Part shown: piece after piece, positions 3,679 through 44,017 of the stretch | Layout of the letters: each line of letters starts with the position of its first letter | Position numbering within the stretch: position 1 is the first letter of the stretch | Assembly (NCBI GenBank): GCA_035559535.1 | Contig: DATMBG010000013.1 | Span: 1-44,017 of the forward strand | From: Candidatus Limnocylindrales bacterium | GTDB lineage: Bacteria; Moduliflexota; Moduliflexia; Moduliflexales; JAUQPW01 | Length of the DNA stretch: 44,017 nucleotides | Direction: 5' to 3' | Translations under genes and position numbers: made by a program | The notes under the pieces: model-generated | What the model was told of the DNA's origin: nothing | What the model saw: only the letters and a program-made list of their open reading frames with translations | Databases searched by the model: none

Positions 3679-4743
3679 ATGAATCGTATTATTGGTGCTT
3701 TTATTTTTCCAAACGTCTGGCAGACCTGGACCGGGTCCGAAGCAGAACGGATACTCAGGACCCTGGCCGAATTTGGAATCAACACCATCTTTACGGAATC
3801 TGAGTTCTATCGAGATGATCTGATTGAGATAGCCCATCGATTGGGGCTCCGGTGGGTGGGTGGAATTGCCTGTTTTTCCGATCATGCCCATCAGCATCGA
3901 CTGCTTCAAGATCGGCCAGAACTATGGCCGATCGATGAAACCGGTCAGCGTCGTCCCCAGATGGAATGGTATATCGGCATCACCCCGACCTTTGAGGATT
4001 ATAATACTTCTCGATTGGAGCTGGCCGATAGACTTGTACAGAATCACCCTCTCGATGGTTTTTTCCTTGACTTCATCCGTTGGCCGATTCACTGGGAACT
4101 CGAGCTACGTCCGGGTACAACCAGGCCCTTACAATCCTCCTTTGATCCTCATACCCTGACCCGATTCCAGACTGAAACTGGAATCGAACTGCCGACCGAG
4201 CTTGGGGATATCTCCGCCCAGGCCCACTGGATTCTCTCTCACCACTTCACCGCATGGACAGATTTTAAATGTCGAATCATCACAAATTTTGTTCAACAAG
4301 CTACCACGCGACTACGTAAAATCCGAGGTCAGGACTTCTTGTTGGGCTTGTATGTCTTGCCTTTTTCGCCTGAATTACTGGAGCCCCTGGCAGGTCAAAG
4401 GTTACAAGATCTTGCCCTATGGATAGATGTAATCGCACCCATGGCCTACCATGCTATTTTACATCGATCTGTCCAATGGATAGGGGAAGTTATTCAAAGT
4501 ATGACCTCTCTGGTTGCCGATAAGATATTGCCGGTTTTACAGGTAGATTCCACAGAAGGAGCCGAAAAGGGAGCAGATTGGGGACCTCCCATTCCTGTTT
4601 ATGAATGGGAAGATGCCTTACGGCTAACCCTGAACTCATCAGGTATAAGGGGTTTGATAACTTTCACCGGGACCGCTCTTTTTCGTGATCGTCGAGGCGA
4701 GTCCCTGCGGACTATGCTTTCAACCTCTTCTATCAAAGGTTAA
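3679..4743 (+). CDS. Putative TIM-barrel glycoside hydrolase-like protein (GHL10/DUF187-like)
   Basis: GINTIF, LDGFFLDFIRW, DVIAPMAYH motifs; follows sugar ABC genes; no signal peptide. Confidence 0.65.
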   Translation: MNRIIGAFIFPNVWQTWTGSEAERILRTLAEFGINTIFTESEFYRDDLIEIAHRLGLRWVGGIACFSDHAHQHRLLQDRPELWPIDETGQRRPQMEWYIGITPTFEDYNTSRLELADRLVQNHPLDGFFLDFIRWPIHWELELRPGTTRPLQSSFDPHTLTRFQTETGIELPTELGDISAQAHWILSHHFTAWTDFKCRIITNFVQQATTRLRKIRGQDFLLGLYVLPFSPELLEPLAGQRLQDLALWIDVIAPMAYHAILHRSVQWIGEVIQSMTSLVADKILPVLQVDSTEGAEKGADWGPPIPVYEWEDALRLTLNSSGIRGLITFTGTALFRDRRGESLRTMLSTSSIKG

Positions 4744-5063
4744 AAAGTAAATTTATCCCTCGAGGGATTTCCCTATCATTTTTTACTTTTCAATTTTCGG
4801 CAGGAACTGTAAAATAATTCTTTGGTGAAAGAGAAATTAATACCGATTCCATTTTGAAGTACATCCTGAACGGTGGTTTCCCTCCTATTCGCTCTAAGAG
4901 TCTCGAAGGGCGAACGGGTGTATCTTCTAATATATTTAAACCTGGAATGGGTATAAGATCGAAAAATTTACAAAATTCTCTTCCTTCTTTCTGATTTACA
5001 AAATCAGAATTTAATAAAATAACTTTAGTTCCAGGAATCTCTTCTTCGTCAAAGGGAGGTGTT

Positions 5064-5999
5064 ATGGTTAAGAAAAGCTTGTCGGGTTGTTGGCTTCTGC
5101 TGTTGTGTTTGGTAGCAGGAATGGCCACGGCAGCAGATAAAGCCACGATAAATGAATTTTTTACTGCAGTCAAAATAGGGGATACAGATAAAGTCCGTAC
5201 CCTAATAACTGCCAATCCCGAACTGATAAATATAAAGGATCGCTACCATTCTACCCCGTTACACCATGCGATTGGTATGGGTCATTGGGAGATTACGAAA
5301 CTTTTGGTGGACCAGGGGGCCGATATCAATGCGAAGACGCGAAGTGGTATTACACCGCTACATATGGCCATCTCTTCAGGCAATCGGAAGATGGTAGAGC
5401 TTCTTCTGGCCAAAGGAGCCAATATTAATGGGGGAACTGACTATGATGTAACTCCCCTCCATGCAGCCACAGATCTGGATAATCGAGAGATTGCAGAGCT
5501 TCTCATCACCAAAGGGGCCGATATAGGTGCAAGAACCGGTCACGGGACCACCCCTTTACATATCGCGGCCTATGACGGTCATAAAGACATGGTAGAGTTT
5601 CTCCTGGGTAAGGGGGCCGATCTCAATGCCAGGGATAAGGATGGGTCTACTCCTCTGCATTTGGCGGCTTATGGGGGAAAGCGGGAGGTTGTAGAGCTTC
5701 TCCTTGCCAGGGGAGCCGATATCCACGCAAAAAACGATGAAGGGGATACTCCGCTCCACGTTGCAGCTTCTCGAGGTAAGTCAGAAGTGGTGGAACTTCT
5801 CCTTACCAAAGGGGCCGAGATTAATGCCAGGAATAAAAATGGATCGACCCCTCTACATTTAGCAGCCTCTAAGGGTCAGCAAGAAGTTGTGAAGATCCTC
5901 CTGGTCAAGGGAGCAGATATCCATGCCAAGAACGATAAGGGTGAAACTCCTCTGGATGTAGCCGATCCGGATTTGGTTTCGCTCCTCCAAGGACATTGA
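5064..5999 (+). CDS. Secreted ankyrin-repeat protein
   Basis: Signal peptide plus about 8 G-x-TPLH-x-A...LL-x-x-GAD repeats; SD GGAGGT. Confidence 0.93.
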   Translation: MVKKSLSGCWLLLLCLVAGMATAADKATINEFFTAVKIGDTDKVRTLITANPELINIKDRYHSTPLHHAIGMGHWEITKLLVDQGADINAKTRSGITPLHMAISSGNRKMVELLLAKGANINGGTDYDVTPLHAATDLDNREIAELLITKGADIGARTGHGTTPLHIAAYDGHKDMVEFLLGKGADLNARDKDGSTPLHLAAYGGKREVVELLLARGADIHAKNDEGDTPLHVAASRGKSEVVELLLTKGAEINARNKNGSTPLHLAASKGQQEVVKILLVKGADIHAKNDKGETPLDVADPDLVSLLQGH

Positions 6000-9655: not shown

Positions 9656-10300
9656 TCACTTCTTTCCTTTGACGGCTTTTCGGATAATCAATAAAGAGCC
9701 ATTGCTTCCCGGGACGGCCCCTTTGACGAGTAGAAGATTTTGATCCTCCCGAATACTTACGACTTGAAGGTTCTGGATCGTTTTCCGTTCGTTTCCCATT
9801 CGACCCGGCATGCGTTTTCCTTTAAAGATTCGACCGGGTGAGGTTCTACATCCGATAGCACCTCCATGTCTGAAATATTCATGGGTTCCATGGGAGGCAG
9901 GAAATCCGGCAAAACCATAGCGTTTTACTACCCCTGCAAAACCTCTTCCTTTGGACCAGCCGGTAACGTCTACATATTCCCCCGGTTTAAAAATATTTAC
10001 CCTGATCTCATCTCCTTTCGAGTACTCCACAATTTCATCCGGTTCCAGTCGAATCTCTTTAAGGTATCGTTTGGGAGTTACCTGAGCCGCTTTAAAATGA
10101 CCGAGTAGAGGCTTGGTAACTCGCGATTCTTTCTTATCTATAAATCCCAGTTGAATGGCATTATACTGGTCCGACGCGACCGTTTTCTTCTGAACGATGG
10201 AACAGGGACCGGCTTCGATGACCGTTACCGGTACTACGTTACCTTCTGCATCAAAAATCTGAGTCATTCCGATCTTTCTTCCTAATATTCCCAGAGCCAT
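9656..10300 (-). CDS. rplC: 50S ribosomal protein L3 (stand-alone)
   Basis: GRKIGMTQIF, SKGRGFAGVVKR, SHG, PGRIFKGKRMPG, LLVKGAVPG; SD AGGAGGAGG. Confidence 0.98.
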   Translation of the reverse strand: MALGILGRKIGMTQIFDAEGNVVPVTVIEAGPCSIVQKKTVASDQYNAIQLGFIDKKESRVTKPLLGHFKAAQVTPKRYLKEIRLEPDEIVEYSKGDEIRVNIFKPGEYVDVTGWSKGRGFAGVVKRYGFAGFPASHGTHEYFRHGGAIGCRTSPGRIFKGKRMPGRMGNERKTIQNLQVVSIREDQNLLLVKGAVPGSNGSLLIIRKAVKGKK

Positions 10301-22719: not shown

Positions 22720-23295
22720 ATGTTACCTAAGAAAGATGTGACTCTGAGAGATCTTAAGTTAAGTAGGGCCAGAGGGGATTTTGATTTATTTTCCCAGGTT
22801 GTAACCAAGTACTTTGGAAGCATGATGATGTATGCTATCCGAAAATATTATTGGTTAAGCGAAGCAGATGCCGAGGATCTTGTGCAAGAGGTTTTCAAAG
22901 AGCTTTGCGAGGTGATAAATCAAGAGGTGAGGGAAAAGGAAGCTCCCGTGGATAAATGGCTTTTTAAGCGTCTTAACCAGCGGTGTCTTAACCATTTAAG
23001 AAATTGGAGGATAGCTTCAAAAACTGAGGTTCTAGAGCCGAATTTTCCCGTAATAGATGGAGGGCTGTTCCCAGCACCGGATGAGATGATCGAGGGTGAA
23101 ATCGCCGGGTTCCTCAGGGAAGGTGTCCATAAACAGCTTAGAGGGAGGACTCAGGAAGTTATAAAACTATATATGGAAGGATTATCACAAAAAGAGATTG
23201 CCGAGAAGCTCCAGGTTAGCTCTGCCCGGGTATCTGTACTTATGCAAAAGGGAATCTATAGGTTAAAAAAGTGGTTACAAACCCAGGGTTTTTAG
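22720..23295 (+). CDS. ECF-type RNA polymerase sigma factor
   Basis: Region 2 DAEDLVQEVF...WL...CLNHLR; region 4 GLSQKEIAEKLQVSSARV. Confidence 0.92.
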   Translation: MLPKKDVTLRDLKLSRARGDFDLFSQVVTKYFGSMMMYAIRKYYWLSEADAEDLVQEVFKELCEVINQEVREKEAPVDKWLFKRLNQRCLNHLRNWRIASKTEVLEPNFPVIDGGLFPAPDEMIEGEIAGFLREGVHKQLRGRTQEVIKLYMEGLSQKEIAEKLQVSSARVSVLMQKGIYRLKKWLQTQGF

Positions 23296-23402
23296 GGAAA
23301 AGGTTAACTTTTTTAAAGCGGTTTTGTTTGTTATATAAGTGCGGAGAACCGTATTTTAAACTTAATGAAGAAGATAAAATACAAGGGATAGAGGGAGGCT
23401 GA

Positions 23403-24077
23403 ATGAAATCGATGAGCTGTGAAGTGTTCATGGGACGATTACAGCAATATTTTAGAGGAGAACTATCGGACCAAGATGAATTAGAGATGGACGATCACCT
23501 GGATCGATGTGAGGCATGTACTGAAAAGCTTAAGGCTTTGCTGGAATCAGAGGAGCACTTCTTACTCTCCCCGTGGGAGCAGACTCAAATCTTACAACAG
23601 CTAAGAGCGTCTTATACGCTAGATCCGGATCGGGAACAAAAAGGAATCGAGAAAGTCCTTGCAAGCACTCGACCGTTCTGGTCGGAACCGGCGAAAATGT
23701 TGTGGGCGGCTGCGAATCTATCCGGAATAGATGAAATTCGAGAGCGAATGGGTGCCGAATTTGAAAAACGAGGTCCCATTCACTTAGAGTCCTATACGGG
23801 AGAGCTGTATGTCCGGGATCAGAATTCGGCTATCCTGGAGTTCAGGAAAGAGGGCAGGCCGGCCTTAGATCTTAACGGAAAAACCATTGAGTTCTTTGCA
23901 ACTAAACCGCCGAAAATGGGAGAACTATCCCCTCGCCTTTCCGAAACAATTCAAGCCGGGATTGTTGTGATCGATTTTACAAAACTGGGACTCTCCCTGG
24001 AGGATTATGCAAAGGTACATTTTAAACTTTATCTGGATGAATCCACCGTTATGGAGGGAAGTCTGGGAGAAGAATAA
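23403..24077 (+). CDS. Soluble zinc-binding (zf-HC2/ZAS) anti-sigma factor with unknown C-terminal domain
   Basis: C6...H32xxxC36xxC39; directly after the ECF gene; no obvious TM helix; SD GGAGG. Confidence 0.85.
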   Translation: MKSMSCEVFMGRLQQYFRGELSDQDELEMDDHLDRCEACTEKLKALLESEEHFLLSPWEQTQILQQLRASYTLDPDREQKGIEKVLASTRPFWSEPAKMLWAAANLSGIDEIRERMGAEFEKRGPIHLESYTGELYVRDQNSAILEFRKEGRPALDLNGKTIEFFATKPPKMGELSPRLSETIQAGIVVIDFTKLGLSLEDYAKVHFKLYLDESTVMEGSLGEE

Positions 24078-24193
24078 GTCTTTGGCCGGTTTTAGATCTC
24101 ATCAAGTCTAATAAAAGATCATAAAAATCCAGGAATGTCTGTGGGAACACCAACATCTTTGGGAGCGCCGATGTTTCTGGAAGCGCAAGCAGC

Positions 24194-27100
24194 TTGCCGG
24201 CTTGTCTTGTTTATTTGATGATGAAAGGTCATTTCGGTCCATTTCAAACCTTCCTGGAACGTTTTGACCAGGCGCTCAAAGAGGCCAAACCTTTAAAGCT
24301 TCAGAATTGTGCCATCAGGCCGGAATTCTTATCTCTCCTGAGTCTTGAGAGGCTTATAGAATTTCACAATCTGTTAGAAGAATCACCGTTGGCTTCCTAT
24401 TTGGATCGAAAAATTATCCAGAAGCTCCAGGCCGAGATTGTTTATCGAGGATTGGTTAAAATTCCAAGAGATTTCAACGTTTTTAAGTCGTTTGTTCAAA
24501 AACAATATCCCAAAGATGCCCTTACCTTATCCCTGGATAGACTCAGCCAGATCGTCCAGACCCCTACAGACTGGATGCAGCAGGAAATTGCCTTTTTGTC
24601 AGAGCTTCGGCAACTTAGAGAACTGGGGAGCCGGTTCGAAGAAGTTCTTACCAAAATCCTCTCGACCTTCTGGCCCGAAACAATCCAAAATAAGGCTGTT
24701 ACTCATATCCTGTTTGTGAGAAGTAAGCAACTCCACAATCTGGTGGTAGAGAACTATGTACGCCCTGCCATCGTTCGTCGGATTGCCACAATTGGGAATC
24801 CTGCCGGGGAAAAGATCTTTGCCACTTTAAGCAACCTGGGAGAGGAATTCGAGGAAACCGTCCAGGGGATTCAATTCAACTTGATGTCTCAAAACCTACT
24901 GGAAACCCGTCTTGAGTATGAATTTGATGATTCTCTGATTTCTTGGACCGACTTCTATGGGGAAGGGCGATCTGCCGGACTTGCCTTTGCGTATCTGGCT
25001 TTAGCCTATCAGGAACCTCTTTATCGAAACCTCGGCCCCTATCTGGCCTGTTTTGGCTCTTACAAAGACGGTATCATCGGGCGGGTGGAACAGATTCGGG
25101 AGAAAGTCCTTGCGGCAAAAGAAAGTGGAATTCGGGTATTGGTAATACCGGAAGATAATATCCCGGAGATCCAGAATGATAGGGAAGGGTGTAGGGTTAT
25201 AAAATATCGTTCCGGTCCTGTTGGAGAAGCGCTTAATTTTGTCGCCCAGGAGCTCACCCGGTTAGTGGACGGCCTTCCGGAAGAACTGAAGCCCGTAAAG
25301 GGGCGGCATCCCTTCTACCAGGTTGGATTAAAAGCGGGTCCGGGTATCGTTTCGTGGGAACTGGTACAGGAACGTAGCCGGGGCTTTGTAGGCCGCAAGG
25401 AAGAAGAGGAGGAACTACTCCGATTCCTTATTCAACAGCCCAGGGGTTACTTATTTGTAGAAGGGGATCCCGGTATCGGTAAGAGCGCTTTGCTTTCCCA
25501 ACTTATTCAGGATCTACTCGGAGAAGGGGATAGGGAAGGTCGCCCACCGGATTTGTTAGAACTTGTGACCGGGCTTGGAAAACAGGGTCTTACGCTGGCT
25601 TTCCACCTCTGCTATGCAGGGAATAGAATCAGCATAGACGTACCGAGGATTCTTTCCTCTCTGATGCAACAGTTGGCCGTGCAGGGTGGTCAGCACACTT
25701 TTATACCACCGGAACGCTCTTCCCATGCACTTTTAAATCTTGCACGTGCTGTGGTAGCCCAACGCAAGGGGAAGGTTTTGATCCTCATAGACGGGATCGA
25801 TGAGGCCCTTTCCGTTCATCCTTCTCATCGGCATACGGCTATTCTTGAGACTTTCCTTCCAGGACATCTTCCGGATGGGGTATTTATACTCATCTCGGCC
25901 CGGCGGGGTGTATTACCGACTATTCCCAATCCCTTTATTCCATCCTTCCGGTTGGAATTGCGGGGTCTTCCCTCTGAATCTATCCATCAACTACTCTTTG
26001 AGACCCTAAACAGGGTAGGCAGACCGATCAATCTTTCTTCCTTTTCAGAGAAGGATATAGAAGCCGTAAGGCGGGTCTCAGCCGGTAATCCCCTCTATAT
26101 AAGAATGTTGGCTGAAGACCTGATACAGGGACGACTGAGGATGGACGGGGCCCATCAACTCCCGCTGGGTGTCGAAGGGTACTTCGAGGATATCTTCCGA
26201 AGGCTTTGTGTGAACTCTCGCTGGGCAACCTTGCGAGATTGCCTTCTCTTGTTGGCAGTTTCACGGGATTACCTCTCGGTGGATCAGGTACGCGCTATCC
26301 TGGACCTGTCCTGGATAGAAGCTCAAGAAGCCATAGAAGGAGAACTTCAATCGATCTTGATTAAAAATACGACTACCTCCGAGGTTTTGAGCTATCAGCT
26401 CTTCCATGAGAAGTTTCGAGAGTTTCTTGTGAACCTCTTCTTGGGAAAGCTACCGGAAGTTGTTTCGCGACTCAATCGTCACCTGGTTCGGCAGGCTCTA
26501 AGAATCCCTGCCATGGAGGCAGTCCTAGAACCGGCCCATCTAACCCGGGTACGCCAGCAGTTACTTACCTACTGCCGGCGCTGGCGTGAGACGGGAGATG
26601 CTTATCCTCTCCTGTATCTGCCCGGTCACCTTTACGAGACGGACGCCGGTGAGGAGTTGGAAGCCTTGCTCCGGAAGACTGATTTTCTCGAGGTGAAGCT
26701 GCGACGCCTGGCAGATCCCTTCCTGGCAGCGGAGGATATCCGGTATCTCACCCTGGTACTTCTAAAAGGAGGTCGGGACCAGGATGTGGTGGAACTAGCC
26801 CTCACAGAAAAGGGTTTTCAGCGAGATGGTATTGTCTTGGCCCTGCGAGGAGCCGGACCGAACTATACCCTGCAGATCCATGGAATCGTAAATGCGTTAA
26901 TAACCGTCCAACCCTCCGATTTGTCCCCTTTTCAGAGGATGCAATTCCGATGGTCGCGATACTTCCTGTCCCATCCCCAGGTCCCGGCCAGCATCCTTAA
27001 TGCGAGACGTGCGGCCATCAAGGTAGCTTACTCCTTGGGGATGGATGAAGTGTTGGTCCAGGCAGCACAGGAGGATTCCCAGGTTGTACGGGTAATGCTC

Positions 27101-28393
27101 ATCCCCTACCTGTACCACTTTTGGAAAGAGCGTAGAGACCGGGGTTGGCATTTGATACAACACCTGTGTAGCAGACCCAGATTATCACAACCCTGGAACC
27201 TGTGGCGATTACTCGAAACCCCTATAGGAGTATCCATTGTCATCCTCAGCTACCATTTCGATGAGCCGGAGGTTGTAGAGCAGTTGAAAGAGTGCTGGCA
27301 GGCTAATTCCCGACGTTTATTCCATATACCTCCGGATATGGGTCGGTTACACAAACTCTGGCTTCAGACATTCTGGGGTGGACTGATCTTCATACTTACC
27401 CAGATTCTGATGAGGTTCCTGGCAACTCAGCCCGAGTTTCAACCCATCAATCTGGTAGAGCTCAAAGATGCTTTTCTCCGTCCGAACCCGGAATACCAGA
27501 AGCTGGTGAGGGTACTGGAATGCCTGGAAGATCCAGACTCAGGTTTCACCCAGGCTTTAGAAGTACTATTAAGCCGCAATACTTCCTTTGACGTATATTT
27601 AATGATAGCCCTGGAATGGACCTTCATCTACCATGGTTCACGGGATCCAGGAGGCGTCCTGGCTGCACTGGATCGTATCCACCGGGAAGGCTGCTCATGG
27701 TTCAGGCAATCGGCCCTGTTTGTAGCTTTCCATACCTTGGACAAGGCCCGGCGTGTTGAAGACGAGTGGCTGGAGACCTATGCCCGTATGACCCGGGAGA
27801 CGATTCGATCCACCCAGGCAACCTTTCAAACGGCAAAAAGAACCTACTCTTTGCTCCCCCATATGGCCTGGGCGGAGGTCGTCTTCGATAAACATCGTCC
27901 TGCCGGACGCGCCCGCTTTATTCCAGAATTTTTAAGGGATGCCATTGCTTCCGGCCATATCGCCTACGCCCGGCGTACCATCCTGGCGGGGGTCGTCCTC
28001 TCCCTCATCTACCGTCGCCATCAACTGGCCTTGGATGCCCTGCGCAGTGCCCTGGAGGTCCAGGATGATCGGCTTCAAGATCTCCTTATAAATGCCCTGG
28101 CAAACATTCGATTTTATGAACAAGAAACTGTAGACCGCTTCCTGGAACACCAGGATGCCAGAGAACTGGCCAGGCGGGTCGCCTCCATCACTCCTACCAT
28201 TTTGTTCGGTCATATCCAAAACTGCTTCGATGAATTCTTCTATCATGGAATAATCCACTCGGATGATTTTCGAACTGAAGTCGTCGGAGCCCTTCGATAT
28301 AGACTCCAGGCTCAAAGCCCAACCCAATGGCTCCGACATGTCGTCAAACGATACGTGAATGCCTTTTTGGGTGAGAAACTTTTCCCGATGTAA
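24194..28393 (+). CDS. Lon-type (S16) protease - STAND/NACHT-like NTPase - helical repeat fusion protein
   Basis: GRS260AG...IREK304VLAAKESGIRVLVIPEDN; FVGR, Walker A GDPGIGKS, Walker B LIDGIDE, GNPLY, YQLFHEKFREFL; start may be ATG 24218 or 24221. Confidence 0.85.
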   Translation: MPACLVYLMMKGHFGPFQTFLERFDQALKEAKPLKLQNCAIRPEFLSLLSLERLIEFHNLLEESPLASYLDRKIIQKLQAEIVYRGLVKIPRDFNVFKSFVQKQYPKDALTLSLDRLSQIVQTPTDWMQQEIAFLSELRQLRELGSRFEEVLTKILSTFWPETIQNKAVTHILFVRSKQLHNLVVENYVRPAIVRRIATIGNPAGEKIFATLSNLGEEFEETVQGIQFNLMSQNLLETRLEYEFDDSLISWTDFYGEGRSAGLAFAYLALAYQEPLYRNLGPYLACFGSYKDGIIGRVEQIREKVLAAKESGIRVLVIPEDNIPEIQNDREGCRVIKYRSGPVGEALNFVAQELTRLVDGLPEELKPVKGRHPFYQVGLKAGPGIVSWELVQERSRGFVGRKEEEEELLRFLIQQPRGYLFVEGDPGIGKSALLSQLIQDLLGEGDREGRPPDLLELVTGLGKQGLTLAFHLCYAGNRISIDVPRILSSLMQQLAVQGGQHTFIPPERSSHALLNLARAVVAQRKGKVLILIDGIDEALSVHPSHRHTAILETFLPGHLPDGVFILISARRGVLPTIPNPFIPSFRLELRGLPSESIHQLLFETLNRVGRPINLSSFSEKDIEAVRRVSAGNPLYIRMLAEDLIQGRLRMDGAHQLPLGVEGYFEDIFRRLCVNSRWATLRDCLLLLAVSRDYLSVDQVRAILDLSWIEAQEAIEGELQSILIKNTTTSEVLSYQLFHEKFREFLVNLFLGKLPEVVSRLNRHLVRQALRIPAMEAVLEPAHLTRVRQQLLTYCRRWRETGDAYPLLYLPGHLYETDAGEELEALLRKTDFLEVKLRRLADPFLAAEDIRYLTLVLLKGGRDQDVVELALTEKGFQRDGIVLALRGAGPNYTLQIHGIVNALITVQPSDLSPFQRMQFRWSRYFLSHPQVPASILNARRAAIKVAYSLGMDEVLVQAAQEDSQVVRVMLIPYLYHFWKERRDRGWHLIQHLCSRPRLSQPWNLWRLLETPIGVSIVILSYHFDEPEVVEQLKECWQANSRRLFHIPPDMGRLHKLWLQTFWGGLIFILTQILMRFLATQPEFQPINLVELKDAFLRPNPEYQKLVRVLECLEDPDSGFTQALEVLLSRNTSFDVYLMIALEWTFIYHGSRDPGGVLAALDRIHREGCSWFRQSALFVAFHTLDKARRVEDEWLETYARMTRETIRSTQATFQTAKRTYSLLPHMAWAEVVFDKHRPAGRARFIPEFLRDAIASGHIAYARRTILAGVVLSLIYRRHQLALDALRSALEVQDDRLQDLLINALANIRFYEQETVDRFLEHQDARELARRVASITPTILFGHIQNCFDEFFYHGIIHSDDFRTEVVGALRYRLQAQSPTQWLRHVVKRYVNAFLGEKLFPM

Positions 28394-29748: not shown

Positions 29749-31260
29749 ATGAAACGATTTTTCTCAAAGATCAACACGTCGGGTACGTATAGAGGGATGT
29801 CTTTGTTTTTTCCAGATCTGAAATCCCCCCACCAGGCTATAGGGTACCTGGGAATCCCACGGATTCTTAAAGGAATGTTCTGGTTGTTTTTGTTTTGGAA
29901 TATAGGTCACGCAGAGGCAGGATGGCTGGGAATCGAACTCCAAGAAAGACTTATAGACCCTGCCAGAGGTTTATCGGTGGTCATGGTAAAGGCCGTAATA
30001 CCTGAGAGTCCGGCGGCTATAGCCGGGATTCAACCGGGTGATCTTCTTCTTACCATCCAGGGGAAACCTGCCGTCCGGGTTCAAGAGCTTATCCATGAGA
30101 TTCAAACTCTTCCACCGGGAACCCAACTTCCCATTGAATTGCTTCGATCCGGTCAAAAGTTGACCCTAACCCTGACTCTTGGGAGTTTACCAACCCATCT
30201 TTCACCGATCCCTTCTCAACCTGACACTTCGTCTTCGAGTTCTTCCCAGCAGAAAAACAGGTCGGAAACTTCCCAGGTTCCCGAATTTTCAACTTCCTTA
30301 TCCAAAAACCAAGAAGACCGAAAAGTTAGCCTGGAGCTGGAGACATATAACGCAGGATTTTTCTCCTTAGACAAGCCTAAAGGGTGGACGGTTATTACAG
30401 CCGGAGCCTGTTCCACCCTGGCCTTTTTAATCCGAGATCCTTCGGAATCTCTTCGACAGATTTTCTATTTCAGCCTGGCCGGACCGGTTTATATGAATAT
30501 TCAACAAAAGCAACAAGATTATCAGTACATGCGTATGGGCGGCATTCCCATTCCCTGGATTGAGATGCCTGTGGTAGATCCTCTGACGCCAGGCAATTTT
30601 CTGACCCAGTTTCATCTCATGGTCCAGACTCAGGCAGCCCGACAATTTATGCCGAAAGCACCCGACCTGGAAAACCTCCAGATTATCTCGACCACTCCTC
30701 AACCCAGTTTCTTAGGGGGTCAAACAGAATTAATTCGGGCTCTGTTTGTCCAGGATAATAAACTGGGTGAGGGTTTATTTCTACTTACAGTAACTCCTGC
30801 CCCCATAGGAAGCATTGCCTTCGGGTCGATGTTTGTAGGAATCACCGCTCCTAAACAAGAGTTTCGATTTCTTGAAGAAACCCTTATTAAATCTGTTCAA
30901 AGCTTTACGATAAGTCAATCTTATATAAATAACTGCATCAGACAACAAGATCAGGATACTAAAGCCCTTCTCAAGGCTGGAAAGACCCTCGGCGAGGCAT
31001 CAGACTTAATTATGAAAAGCTGGGAAGACCGCAATAAGGTGGAAGATATCCTCTCTGAAAAGAGAAGTGATGCAATTTTGGGAAAAGAGCGACTTTATGA
31101 TCCTGCTACCAAAGAGGTCTATGAATTTAAAAATGGTTTCTACGATCAATATCAACTAAATCAGAATAAATATGAAATGAATAACTTACAACCTTTACCT
31201 CAGAACGACTATGAGCTTTGGATGAAAACCCCTCTGGATGGGTATAGACATCTTAAATAG
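29749..31260 (+). CDS. Exported PDZ-domain protein with uncharacterised C-terminal domain
   Basis: GWLGIEL...SPAAIAGIQPGDLL (PDZ), Ser-rich linker; signal-like segment ending AEA; true start may be later, near 29875. Confidence 0.75.
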   Translation: MKRFFSKINTSGTYRGMSLFFPDLKSPHQAIGYLGIPRILKGMFWLFLFWNIGHAEAGWLGIELQERLIDPARGLSVVMVKAVIPESPAAIAGIQPGDLLLTIQGKPAVRVQELIHEIQTLPPGTQLPIELLRSGQKLTLTLTLGSLPTHLSPIPSQPDTSSSSSSQQKNRSETSQVPEFSTSLSKNQEDRKVSLELETYNAGFFSLDKPKGWTVITAGACSTLAFLIRDPSESLRQIFYFSLAGPVYMNIQQKQQDYQYMRMGGIPIPWIEMPVVDPLTPGNFLTQFHLMVQTQAARQFMPKAPDLENLQIISTTPQPSFLGGQTELIRALFVQDNKLGEGLFLLTVTPAPIGSIAFGSMFVGITAPKQEFRFLEETLIKSVQSFTISQSYINNCIRQQDQDTKALLKAGKTLGEASDLIMKSWEDRNKVEDILSEKRSDAILGKERLYDPATKEVYEFKNGFYDQYQLNQNKYEMNNLQPLPQNDYELWMKTPLDGYRHLK

Positions 31261-43815: not shown

Positions 43816-43874
43816 TTTATTAGAAAAGAATAAGTAAAGAAGTAAGCAATAAGCAAATAGTAAGAGAAAAATTA

Positions 43875-44017
43875 CAGTCAAGTCTCACGACCGATTAGGA
43901 TCGGTGGGCTCAACCGGTTACCCGGCTTACACCTCCGACCTATCTACCTGGTCTTCTTCCAGGGGTCTTCAGAATCCTTGCGGATTGGGAGATCTCATCT
44001 TGAGGCGGGCTTCCCGC
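43875..44017 (-). rRNA. rrl: 23S rRNA, 3' end (truncated by the window edge)
   Basis: Plus strand GTCAAG...ATTAG...GCTCAAC...GCTTACAC...CCTATC...GGGAGATCTCATCTTGAGGCGGGCTTCCCGC matches the antisense of the bacterial 23S 3' terminus. Confidence 0.92.

Follow-up and report, generated by a model that had tools for sequence, protein, structure and literature searches.

Three adjacent genes on the plus strand of contig DATMBG010000013.1 (GCA_035559535.1), at positions 22720-28393 of the 44,017-nt stretch that we analyzed and refer to as the window, appear to encode a protease-gated switch for an extracytoplasmic function (ECF) sigma factor. The first gene specifies the sigma factor, the second a soluble zinc-binding anti-sigma factor (ZAS), and the third a large protein in which a helical domain and a Lon-like protease precede a NACHT NTPase of the STAND (signal transduction ATPase with numerous domains) class and a long, presumed sensor region. 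In our reading, to which we assign a probability of about 0.58, the protease would gate the sigma factor by way of the anti-sigma factor, independently of CRISPR and in a manner similar to the CalpL/T/S system. The reading draws on a modeled Lon fold with a conserved catalytic dyad, on the recurrence of the trio in two phyla, and on the predicted docking of the anti-sigma factor on the protease-bearing module.

A Lon-like protease module in the large protein

At the level of sequence, the Lon region of the large protein gives a marginal signal. Its best match in a single-sequence phmmer search of the PDB had an E value of 0.0093, and a PDB profile search with the module retrieved 8dvh_A at an E value of 4e-7. 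An AlphaFold2 (AF2) model of residues 1 to 400, built with a 28-row family alignment, reached a predicted local distance difference test score (pLDDT) of 87.6 and a predicted template modeling score (pTM) of 0.86; from the single sequence, the pLDDT was 41 and the model was unusable. Foldseek matched the model of the module to the P-domain of Escherichia coli Lon (3wu6_A; E value, 1e-6; target TM-score, 0.70), and VIA-align superimposed it on solved Lon proteolytic domains with Z scores of 15 to 16.6 and root mean square deviations of 2.5 to 2.9 Å over approximately 168 residues. Because the modeled fold matches solved Lon domains, where sequence alone was marginal, we consider the identity settled as far as a model can settle it: the large protein contains a predicted Lon proteolytic fold. 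The helical domain in front of it is specific to the family, and the best structural match of this domain alone had a Z score of 5.6 or lower.

The first-pass annotation of this DNA, made from the sequence alone, had placed a Lon Ser-Lys dyad at residues 260 and 304, and both assignments are borne out. In alignments, S260 (within EGRSAG) and K304 (within REK-VL-AA) fall on the motifs that hold the catalytic residues of Lon, and both are invariant in 13 of 13 aligned sequences. Of the 23 rows in the 28-row alignment that extend over these positions, all have the Ser and 22 have the Lys; a weak match (P0031) has Thr instead. No match to a Lon AAA+ unfoldase module was found in the large protein, whose NTPase is of the NACHT type and lies C-terminal to the protease; the large protein contains no membrane segment. 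It belongs to a divergent Lon subfamily: it misses the Pfam Lon_C cutoff, which one of its relatives (P0012) passes with 25.0 bits. The ordinary Lon of this genome, of approximately 809 aa, is encoded elsewhere (G000:C17). As to the N terminus, the reading frame opens with TTG, but the true start is probably one of the ATG codons at 24218 and 24221, because the homologues start there and residues 1 to 13 are disordered in the model. The coordinates of all features of the trio are listed in Table 1.

TABLE 1 Features of the sigma factor, anti-sigma factor, and large protein genes in the window
Feature	Position (nt)	Strand	Basis or remark
ECF (group 4) sigma factor, 191 aa	22720..23295	+	TIGR02937, Pfam
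Soluble ZAS (zf-HC2) anti-sigma factor, 224 aa	23403..24077	+	PF13490
zf-HC2 domain, residues 6-39 (C6, H32, C36, C39)	23418..23519	+	Pfam match
Linker motif W101-A-A-A-N105	23703..23717	+	A103 and A104 invariant in 6/6 homologues; proposed cleavage region
Anti-sigma C-terminal domain, residues 109-224	23727..24074	+	Predicted docking domain for protease module
Lon-like protease/NACHT STAND protein, 1399 aa	24194..28393	+	TTG start; ATG 24218 or 24221 probable
N-terminal helical domain, residues ~15-160	24236..24673	+	AF2 pLDDT >90 over most; predicted docking surface 16-73
Lon (S16) proteolytic fold, residues 158-359	24665..25270	+	Foldseek, VIA-align, PDB profile
Ser260 codon	24971-24973	+	Lon catalytic Ser
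Lys304 codon	25103-25105	+	Lon catalytic Lys
NACHT NTPase, residues 398-605	25385..26008	+	PF05729; Walker A 424-431 (nt 25463-25486), Walker B 529-537
Post-NACHT region, residues 640-1399 (760 aa), presumed sensor	26111..28390	+	Homologues with other N termini

Recurrence of the trio in two phyla

Within the genus of the window's genome (G000), the order sigma factor, ZAS, large gene is kept at two further loci (G001/L002 and L007), and the large protein has an orthologue that is 90% identical; these genomes are so close that they carry little weight. Two independent loci are found in a 9.1-Mb genome (G041), which must belong to another phylum, as the phyla of G000 and G041 differ in size (9 versus 176 genomes). 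This genome holds two diverged copies of the trio with different sensors, one on contig C59 (L008/L016) and one on contig C23 (L019), both in the same order as in the window. At L008, the sigma factor is 37%, the ZAS 47% (over its full length), and the module 50% identical to those of the window; the large protein, of 781 aa, consists of the Lon module, a transmembrane segment, and TPRs and lacks an NTPase, and there is an overlap between the anti-sigma gene and the protease gene (1848 and 1838). At L019, the sigma factor is 34% and the ZAS, over its full length, 32% identical, and the large protein, of 1193 aa, combines the Lon module with NB-ARC and TPRs and matches the family profile with an E value of 2.8e-42.

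The region upstream of the L008 sigma gene (approximately 230-345) also carries two copies of a direct repeat of about 25 nt (ACAGAAAAC-GAAAATTTT-GTGG type), located before a TATAAT-like box; the repeats may constitute an operator, or else a repeat element. Inspection by eye of the DNA preceding the sigma genes at four loci (the window, L007, L008, and L019) revealed no ECF-type promoter common to them.

The sigma/anti-sigma pair is thus found directly upstream of the module gene in three of the four independent loci with readable upstream DNA, in two phyla. Likewise, in searches of both G000 and G041, full-length matches to a hidden Markov model (HMM) of the anti-sigma factor occur only beside Lon-module genes, once in G000 and twice in G041, and the other nine matches in these genomes cover the zinc-finger part only. 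These comparisons support the view that the trio is a conserved functional unit and not a chance neighborhood. The first-pass annotation had made its proposal dependent on such linkage, and here it stands, but its notion of the unit, which joined the STAND NTPase, the protease, and the sigma pair, stands only in part: while the trio is conserved, the constant partner of the pair is the helical and Lon module and not the NTPase, which is missing at L008.

The sigma factor and the anti-sigma factor

The first gene was annotated as an ECF sigma factor, and we agree. Its product scores 66.5 bits against the curated sigma70-ECF model TIGR02937 (cutoff, 42.9) and exceeds the cutoffs of Pfam Sigma70_r2 (residues 41-95) and r4/r4_2 (residues 138-184), whereas region 3 or region 1 gave no Pfam match at an E value of ≤1. 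With two of the sigma regions (2 and 4) and a score above the curated cutoff, the protein qualifies as an ECF sigma factor.

The second gene, the ATG of which is preceded by a strong GGGAGG Shine-Dalgarno sequence, encodes a protein that matches PF13490 at residues 6 to 39 with 29.9 bits (cutoff, 22.2) and carries the motif H32-x3-C36-x2-C39 plus C6. Of six aligned homologues, all have H32, C36, and C39, and five have C6; the L019 counterpart has H-x4-C spacing in place of H-x3-C. There is no membrane segment, the highest Kyte-Doolittle mean over 19 residues being 1.08, so that the HxxxCxxC anti-sigma factor lacking a transmembrane segment that had been proposed for this gene is confirmed by both the domain match and the hydropathy. 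Its nearest solved zf-HC2 relative is RsiW, at an E value of 0.52, and it has no match in PADLOC. That it binds and inhibits the sigma factor we infer from the adjacency and the co-divergence of the two genes only.

Behind the zinc finger, the linker motif directly precedes a C-terminal domain that is kept in the L008 and L019 counterparts. For this domain, neither Pfam nor PDB sequence searches returned a match, and ESM Atlas scores were at chance level (0.80 to 0.84). In a word-index search, four relatives were found for the anti-sigma factor and two for the N-terminal module.

The zinc-finger motif raises the question whether the anti-sigma factor might be a thiol/redox sensor of the RsrA type that releases the sigma factor by itself, the large protein being unrelated or part of the regulon. 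The H-x3-C-x2-C motif would fit, and the RsrA model, TIGR03988, is weakly matched (21.8 bits; cutoff, 62.5). However, most ZAS-motif proteins are not redox sensors, the extra C-terminal domain of about 120 aa occurs only in anti-sigma factors beside Lon-module genes, the trio has co-diverged, and docking of the anti-sigma factor on the module is predicted (see below). We therefore regard a redox switch of this kind as very unlikely.

A portable module on interchangeable sensors

The helical and Lon module, of approximately 360 aa, defines a very rare family as judged by homology searches: with residues 1 to 400 as the query, a HMMER search of 1.84 billion representative proteins yielded 29 relatives at an E value of ≤1e-3. 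In the phylum of G000 (9 genomes), the module is confined to the window's own genus, one of four genera; and among 176 searched genomes of the phylum of G041, it is present in G041 only. A blind sample from the phylum of a third genome (G030; 0 of 14 genomes) was uninformative. Plasmids, phages, and viral contigs yielded no matches. The loci were searched with narrow peptide patterns derived from a 6-row alignment, which overlook divergent members such as L019, so that the locus counts do not measure the range of the family.

The partners fused to the module were identified from Pfam scans of 10 representatives combined with a membrane check, from the precomputed domains of P0005, and from two extra loci. 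The module is followed by a NACHT or another STAND NTPase in P0020 and P0024, by NB-ARC and TPRs in P0016, P0023, and L019, by a single membrane helix and TPRs in L008, P0008, and P0009, and by a multipass membrane domain in P0006. In P0005, a protein of 1638 aa, it is joined to an adenylate/guanylate cyclase, a STAND NTPase (AAA_16), TPRs, and a C terminus of the DUF1349 type. Judging from these architectures, the module is a portable unit that is attached to interchangeable sensors.

The cyclase of P0005 constitutes a second output on one protein and suggests another use of the module. At the metagenomic locus L009 (region 4370-5525), which also has a gene of the cyclase type, a 156-aa open reading frame (ORF) lies just upstream of that gene; its first ~50 residues duplicate the N terminus of the gene, after which it continues into unrelated sequence, and it is followed by an ORF of 134 aa. 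This pair of ORFs resembles a small two-gene cassette inserted with duplication into the 5' end of a gene.

In the window protein, the module is followed by a NACHT that matches PF05729 over residues 420 to 605 with 45 bits (cutoff, 26.7). Walker A (GDPGIGKS, with K430) and Walker B (LILIDGIDE) are both intact, in line with the STAND NTPase and the K430 named in the first-pass annotation. Residues 390 to 1399 have no sequence match in the PDB, and an ESM Atlas search with the sensor region gave scores at chance level (0.80 to 0.84). This half of the protein nevertheless has relatives of its own. We found 20 NACHT proteins, mostly of ~1300 aa (range, 999 to 1435), that are 34 to 49% identical over the post-NACHT region. 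One of these relatives (P0040) is 46% identical to the window protein over residues 376 to 1399 and starts with an unrelated domain of ~290 aa, another (P0055) carries a ThsB-like TIR domain at its N terminus, and a third (P0057) weakly shows a stretch that may be Lon-like (hhalign probability, 27%). Because the NACHT and sensor half recurs with other N-terminal domains, we interpret the window protein, on the basis of its architecture, as an NLR-type (NOD-like receptor) sensor with the Lon module in the effector position.

A shift in the G+C content at third codon positions (GC3) was also considered as a sign of a recent fusion, but it is no evidence for one. The post-NACHT part (26114-28390) has the highest GC3 of the trio (0.569, compared with 0.44 to 0.49 for the sigma factor, the ZAS, and the Lon module), but this value is at the upper end of, and still within, the range of the 17 other ORFs of the window (0.470 ± 0.038; maximum, 0.571).

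Predicted docking and a proposed mechanism

For prediction of the complex, module residues 10 to 372 were combined with the anti-sigma factor, each with its own unpaired alignment (6 rows for the anti-sigma factor). Scores of 0.66, 0.69, and 0.70 were obtained in the three runs, against 0.00 in each of the three controls. In the calibration, 58 of 80 solved complexes and 2 of 110 mismatched pairs attained this mark, figures that are roughly valid for predictions with own alignments. The pLDDT of the partner was 69 to 72, and at least 55% of the contacts were shared between runs. The interface is predicted to join residues 16 to 73 of the helical domain with residues 109 to 189 of the anti-sigma factor. 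The protease:anti-sigma complex that the first-pass annotation had put forward for checking is therefore predicted to form (score, 0.69; best control, 0.00), and the model supports, but does not by itself establish, docking of the C-terminal domain of the anti-sigma factor on the helical domain of the module.

Based on this, we propose the following mechanism. At rest, the soluble anti-sigma factor would hold the ECF sigma factor by its N-terminal zinc-finger domain, while its C-terminal domain would be parked on the helical domain of the large protein. Binding of a ligand to the C-terminal sensor would then induce nucleotide-dependent oligomerization of the NACHT, and the oligomer would place Lon domains, with their Ser260/Lys304 dyads, beside docked anti-sigma molecules. 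The anti-sigma factor might be cut in the linker between its domains, possibly at Ala-Ala 103-104 and probably in trans, which would free the sigma factor, directly or after further degradation, to elicit a transcriptional response. The helical and Lon module would thereby act as a portable output device, which elsewhere may be operated by NB-ARC and TPR sensors or by membrane-anchored TPR sensors. Cleavage and its site, activation by oligomerization, release of the sigma factor, and the nature of the trigger are all steps that we infer. Cleavage near A103-A104 is proposed by analogy with CalpT, in which an LAAA motif immediately ahead of the CalpL-docking fragment is cut.

Several observations weigh against a protease-gated sigma switch. 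The window protein scores 14.4 bits against Pfam Lon_C, under the cutoff of 21.1, and RadA, ComM, and BrxL score nearly as high as Lon against the model of the module. Lon-like folds without protease activity exist, although the conserved dyad argues against a protease-dead fold in this case. The docking rests on the confidence of the predictor with shallow, unpaired alignments, and in the predicted complex the linker is located outside the Lon active site, which makes cleavage in trans an added assumption. As to the linkage, L009 shows no sigma or ZAS gene in the 5.5 kb upstream (the contig ends inside the gene), meaning that the module is not always linked to the pair, and the sample is small, with 4 independent loci of a family with 29 representatives. 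The three genes of the window are spaced by 107 to 143 nt, and their co-transcription is presumed. Finally, cleavage by members of the family is predicted by analogy.

Some of these points would also fit a different role of the pair. The protease might act on another substrate, such as a killing or arrest target or the sigma factor itself, with the anti-sigma factor serving as inhibitor, adaptor, or tether; or the pair might merely control the large gene. In the predicted complex, the anti-sigma factor contacts only the helical domain and not the active site, an ECF-dependent promoter could fit into the gap of 116 to 143 nt in front of the large gene, and the cyclase-type homologue without the pair upstream implies that the module can work without it. 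On the other hand, the anti-sigma factor has two domains with an invariant Ala-Ala linker before the docking domain, similar to the substrate CalpT, and the overlap of the genes at L008 leaves no room for a separate promoter. On balance, we consider another substrate or a merely regulatory role of the pair unlikely and favor gating of the sigma factor through cleavage of the anti-sigma factor.

Possible biological roles

If the trio does operate as a protease-gated sigma switch, its trigger might be an invader or a danger signal. This is plausible because the NACHT and sensor half is of an effector-swapping NLR type with a TIR-bearing relative, and swapped N-terminal effectors are a hallmark of NLR-type immune proteins. 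Tentatively, the large protein could then be viewed as a new class of NLR-type immune receptor with a transcriptional output, in place of cell killing, that makes use of a portable protease-to-sigma cassette, convergent with CalpL/T/S. Its sporadic occurrence across two phyla, the rarity of the family, and the TIR-bearing relative of the sensor half speak for a role in defense; the housekeeping context of the window, the lack of defense neighbors at L008 and L019, and the membrane-anchored TPR variants speak against it.

Conversely, the same logic may serve to respond to an environmental or envelope signal, with no immune role, a possibility that differs only in trigger and role and that we hold equally tentatively. 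Besides the housekeeping genes around the trio in the window, and the likewise defense-free neighborhoods of L008 and L019, the resemblance of the membrane-anchored versions (L008, P0008, P0009, and P0006) to classical signaling proteins and the lack of plasmid, phage, or viral contig matches are in line with such an input. It is more difficult to reconcile with a distribution that is sporadic and extremely rare (one of four genera in the one phylum and 1 of 176 genomes in the other) and with the membership of the sensor half in a family that swaps its N terminus, including for a ThsB-like TIR domain.

Layout and neighborhood of the locus

The three ORFs are co-oriented neighbors, located where the first-pass annotation had placed them. 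They do not overlap, the intergenic gaps being 107 nt between the first and second genes and 116 nt between the second and third, or 140 or 143 nt if the third starts at an ATG. A consensus promoter and terminator scan, which did not rise above shuffled controls, detected no terminator-like site between them. The neighbors in the window are all housekeeping genes (ABC [ATP-binding cassette] transporters, pyruvate phosphate dikinase [PPDK], molybdopterin genes, an aminopeptidase, and MreB), and no defense genes are found next to L008 and L019. In a Pfam scan of the 33 ORFs of the window (30 besides the trio), no cas, CARF, SAVED, or defense genes were detected, and Rfam gave no CRISPR-related match in the window, in agreement with the earlier statement that a CRISPR or SAVED component is absent from it.

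Some other features of the window deserve mention. Nearly the whole of a 311-aa protein (5064-5999, plus strand) is made up of ankyrin repeats (Ank, 250 bits), a composition that is uncommon in bacteria; the ORF in front of it, of 354 aa (3679-4743), has no Pfam match at an E value of ≤1e-6. Two genes downstream of the trio, a 503-aa protein (29749-31260, plus strand) has a PDZ domain at residues 56 to 144 and no recognized protease or other domain; its position is kept in the sister genome (L007, 8479-10050). A 214-aa ORF on the minus strand (9656-10300) gives a partial match to ribosomal protein L3 (59 bits; profile positions 210 to 290 of 369) and is isolated, outside any ribosomal protein operon. 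A 23S rRNA gene is represented by its 3' end (43874-44017, minus strand; Rfam LSU_rRNA_bacteria, 100 bits), the gene being cut off by the edge of the window.

Comparison with known systems

The combination of a Lon-STAND protein with a ZAS and an ECF sigma factor was not described in the full-text literature searched, a coverage that excludes supplements and subscription journals; given this scope, a prior description may exist. In their main texts, neither a 2026 survey of STAND proteins (PMC13581612) nor the study of Kaur et al. from 2020 (PMC7159879) contains "Lon" as a word, and in a paper on cyanobacterial sigma factors (PMC11119718), NB-ARC is dealt with solely as a fusion domain of sigma factors. 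The system also does not appear to be cataloged already, which the first-pass annotation had named as a point on which it could fail: PADLOC and NCBIfam show only a partial match of the NTPase to Avs1b (PADLOC, 36.7 bits over residues 511 to 748 only; NCBIfam, 29.7 bits with a cutoff of 1500).

With Avs and bacterial NACHT (bNACHT) proteins, the large protein shares the arrangement of an N-terminal effector, a STAND NTPase, and a C-terminal sensor, as well as the swapping of effectors within one sensor family, here between a Lon-like module, a TIR domain, and the ~290-aa domain. In contrast to these proteins, its output would be transcriptional, via a partner pair, and would not involve a directly toxic effector. 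The fold and dyad motifs are those of LonA and LonB (MEROPS S16), with EGRSAG compared to DGPSAG and REK-x2-AA compared to (K/R)EK-x2-AA. Unlike LonA and LonB, however, the window protein has no AAA+ unfoldase, and its protease is preceded by a helical domain and followed by a STAND NTPase. Its protease activity is expected to be site specific and nonprocessive. Release of an ECF sigma factor through proteolysis of the anti-sigma factor is also the principle of RseA/RsiW-type regulation, but here the anti-sigma factor is soluble and the candidate protease is a dedicated, sensor-fused, cytoplasmic enzyme of the Lon type.

To our knowledge, gating of an ECF sigma factor by a dedicated cytoplasmic protease is known so far mainly from the CRISPR-linked CalpL/T/S and Craspase systems. 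In Craspase (Cas7-11, Csx29 [TPR-CHAT], Csx30, and CASP-sigma), a sensor-activated protease reportedly cuts a sigma inhibitor and thereby frees an ECF-type sigma factor. The protease is, however, a caspase-like CHAT protein and the sensor is RNA guided, and the parts are unrelated to those of the window.

The likeness to CalpL/T/S is closer. Both combine a Lon-type Ser-Lys protease with an anti-sigma factor and an ECF sigma factor, and in both the protease is laid out as an N-domain, a Lon domain, and a C-terminal sensor, which is SAVED in CalpL according to the CalpL/T report (10.1101/2024.05.08.593097). In that report, a C-terminal fragment of CalpT is bound to the N-domain of CalpL (8B0U), CalpT is cleaved in an LAAA motif and is cut in trans by the neighboring subunit of a ligand-induced filament, and CalpL loses its protease activity upon S154A substitution, its dyad S154/K195 being equivalent to S152/K193 in a homologous CalpL (10.1101/2024.05.08.593097). 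The placement of the C-terminal part of the anti-sigma factor on the protease N-domain, solved for CalpL/T, is predicted here as well, an Ala-rich linker marks the domain boundary of both anti-sigma factors, and sensor-driven oligomerization is plausible in both systems.

The differences are nevertheless substantial. The sensor of the window protein is a NACHT with a 760-aa region, with no Pfam or PADLOC match to SAVED or CARF at an E value of ≤1; the anti-sigma factor is of the zf-HC2 type (its sole Pfam match at an E value of ≤1), whereas CalpT combines a MazF-like domain with DUF2080 (10.1101/2024.05.08.593097); and the window has no type III CRISPR-Cas neighborhood or cyclic-oligoadenylate context. 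PDB searches gave no sequence match of the module to CalpL, and structural alignment of the module with CalpL (7qda_A) yielded a Z score of 11.5 over 138 residues, with the N-domains unaligned, compared with 15 to 16.6 for canonical Lon. Because SAVED, MazF with DUF2080, and the CRISPR neighborhood are all missing, the trio is not a member of the CalpL/T/S system but analogous to it, or at most very distantly related.

In conclusion, the locus suggests that protease-gated sigma logic also exists outside CRISPR, assembled from parts that are not orthologous to those of CalpL/T/S. If confirmed, it would give bacterial NLR-like proteins a transcriptional output, add a new mechanism to the catalog of ECF regulation, and offer a compact, engineerable module that leads from sensor to protease to transcription.

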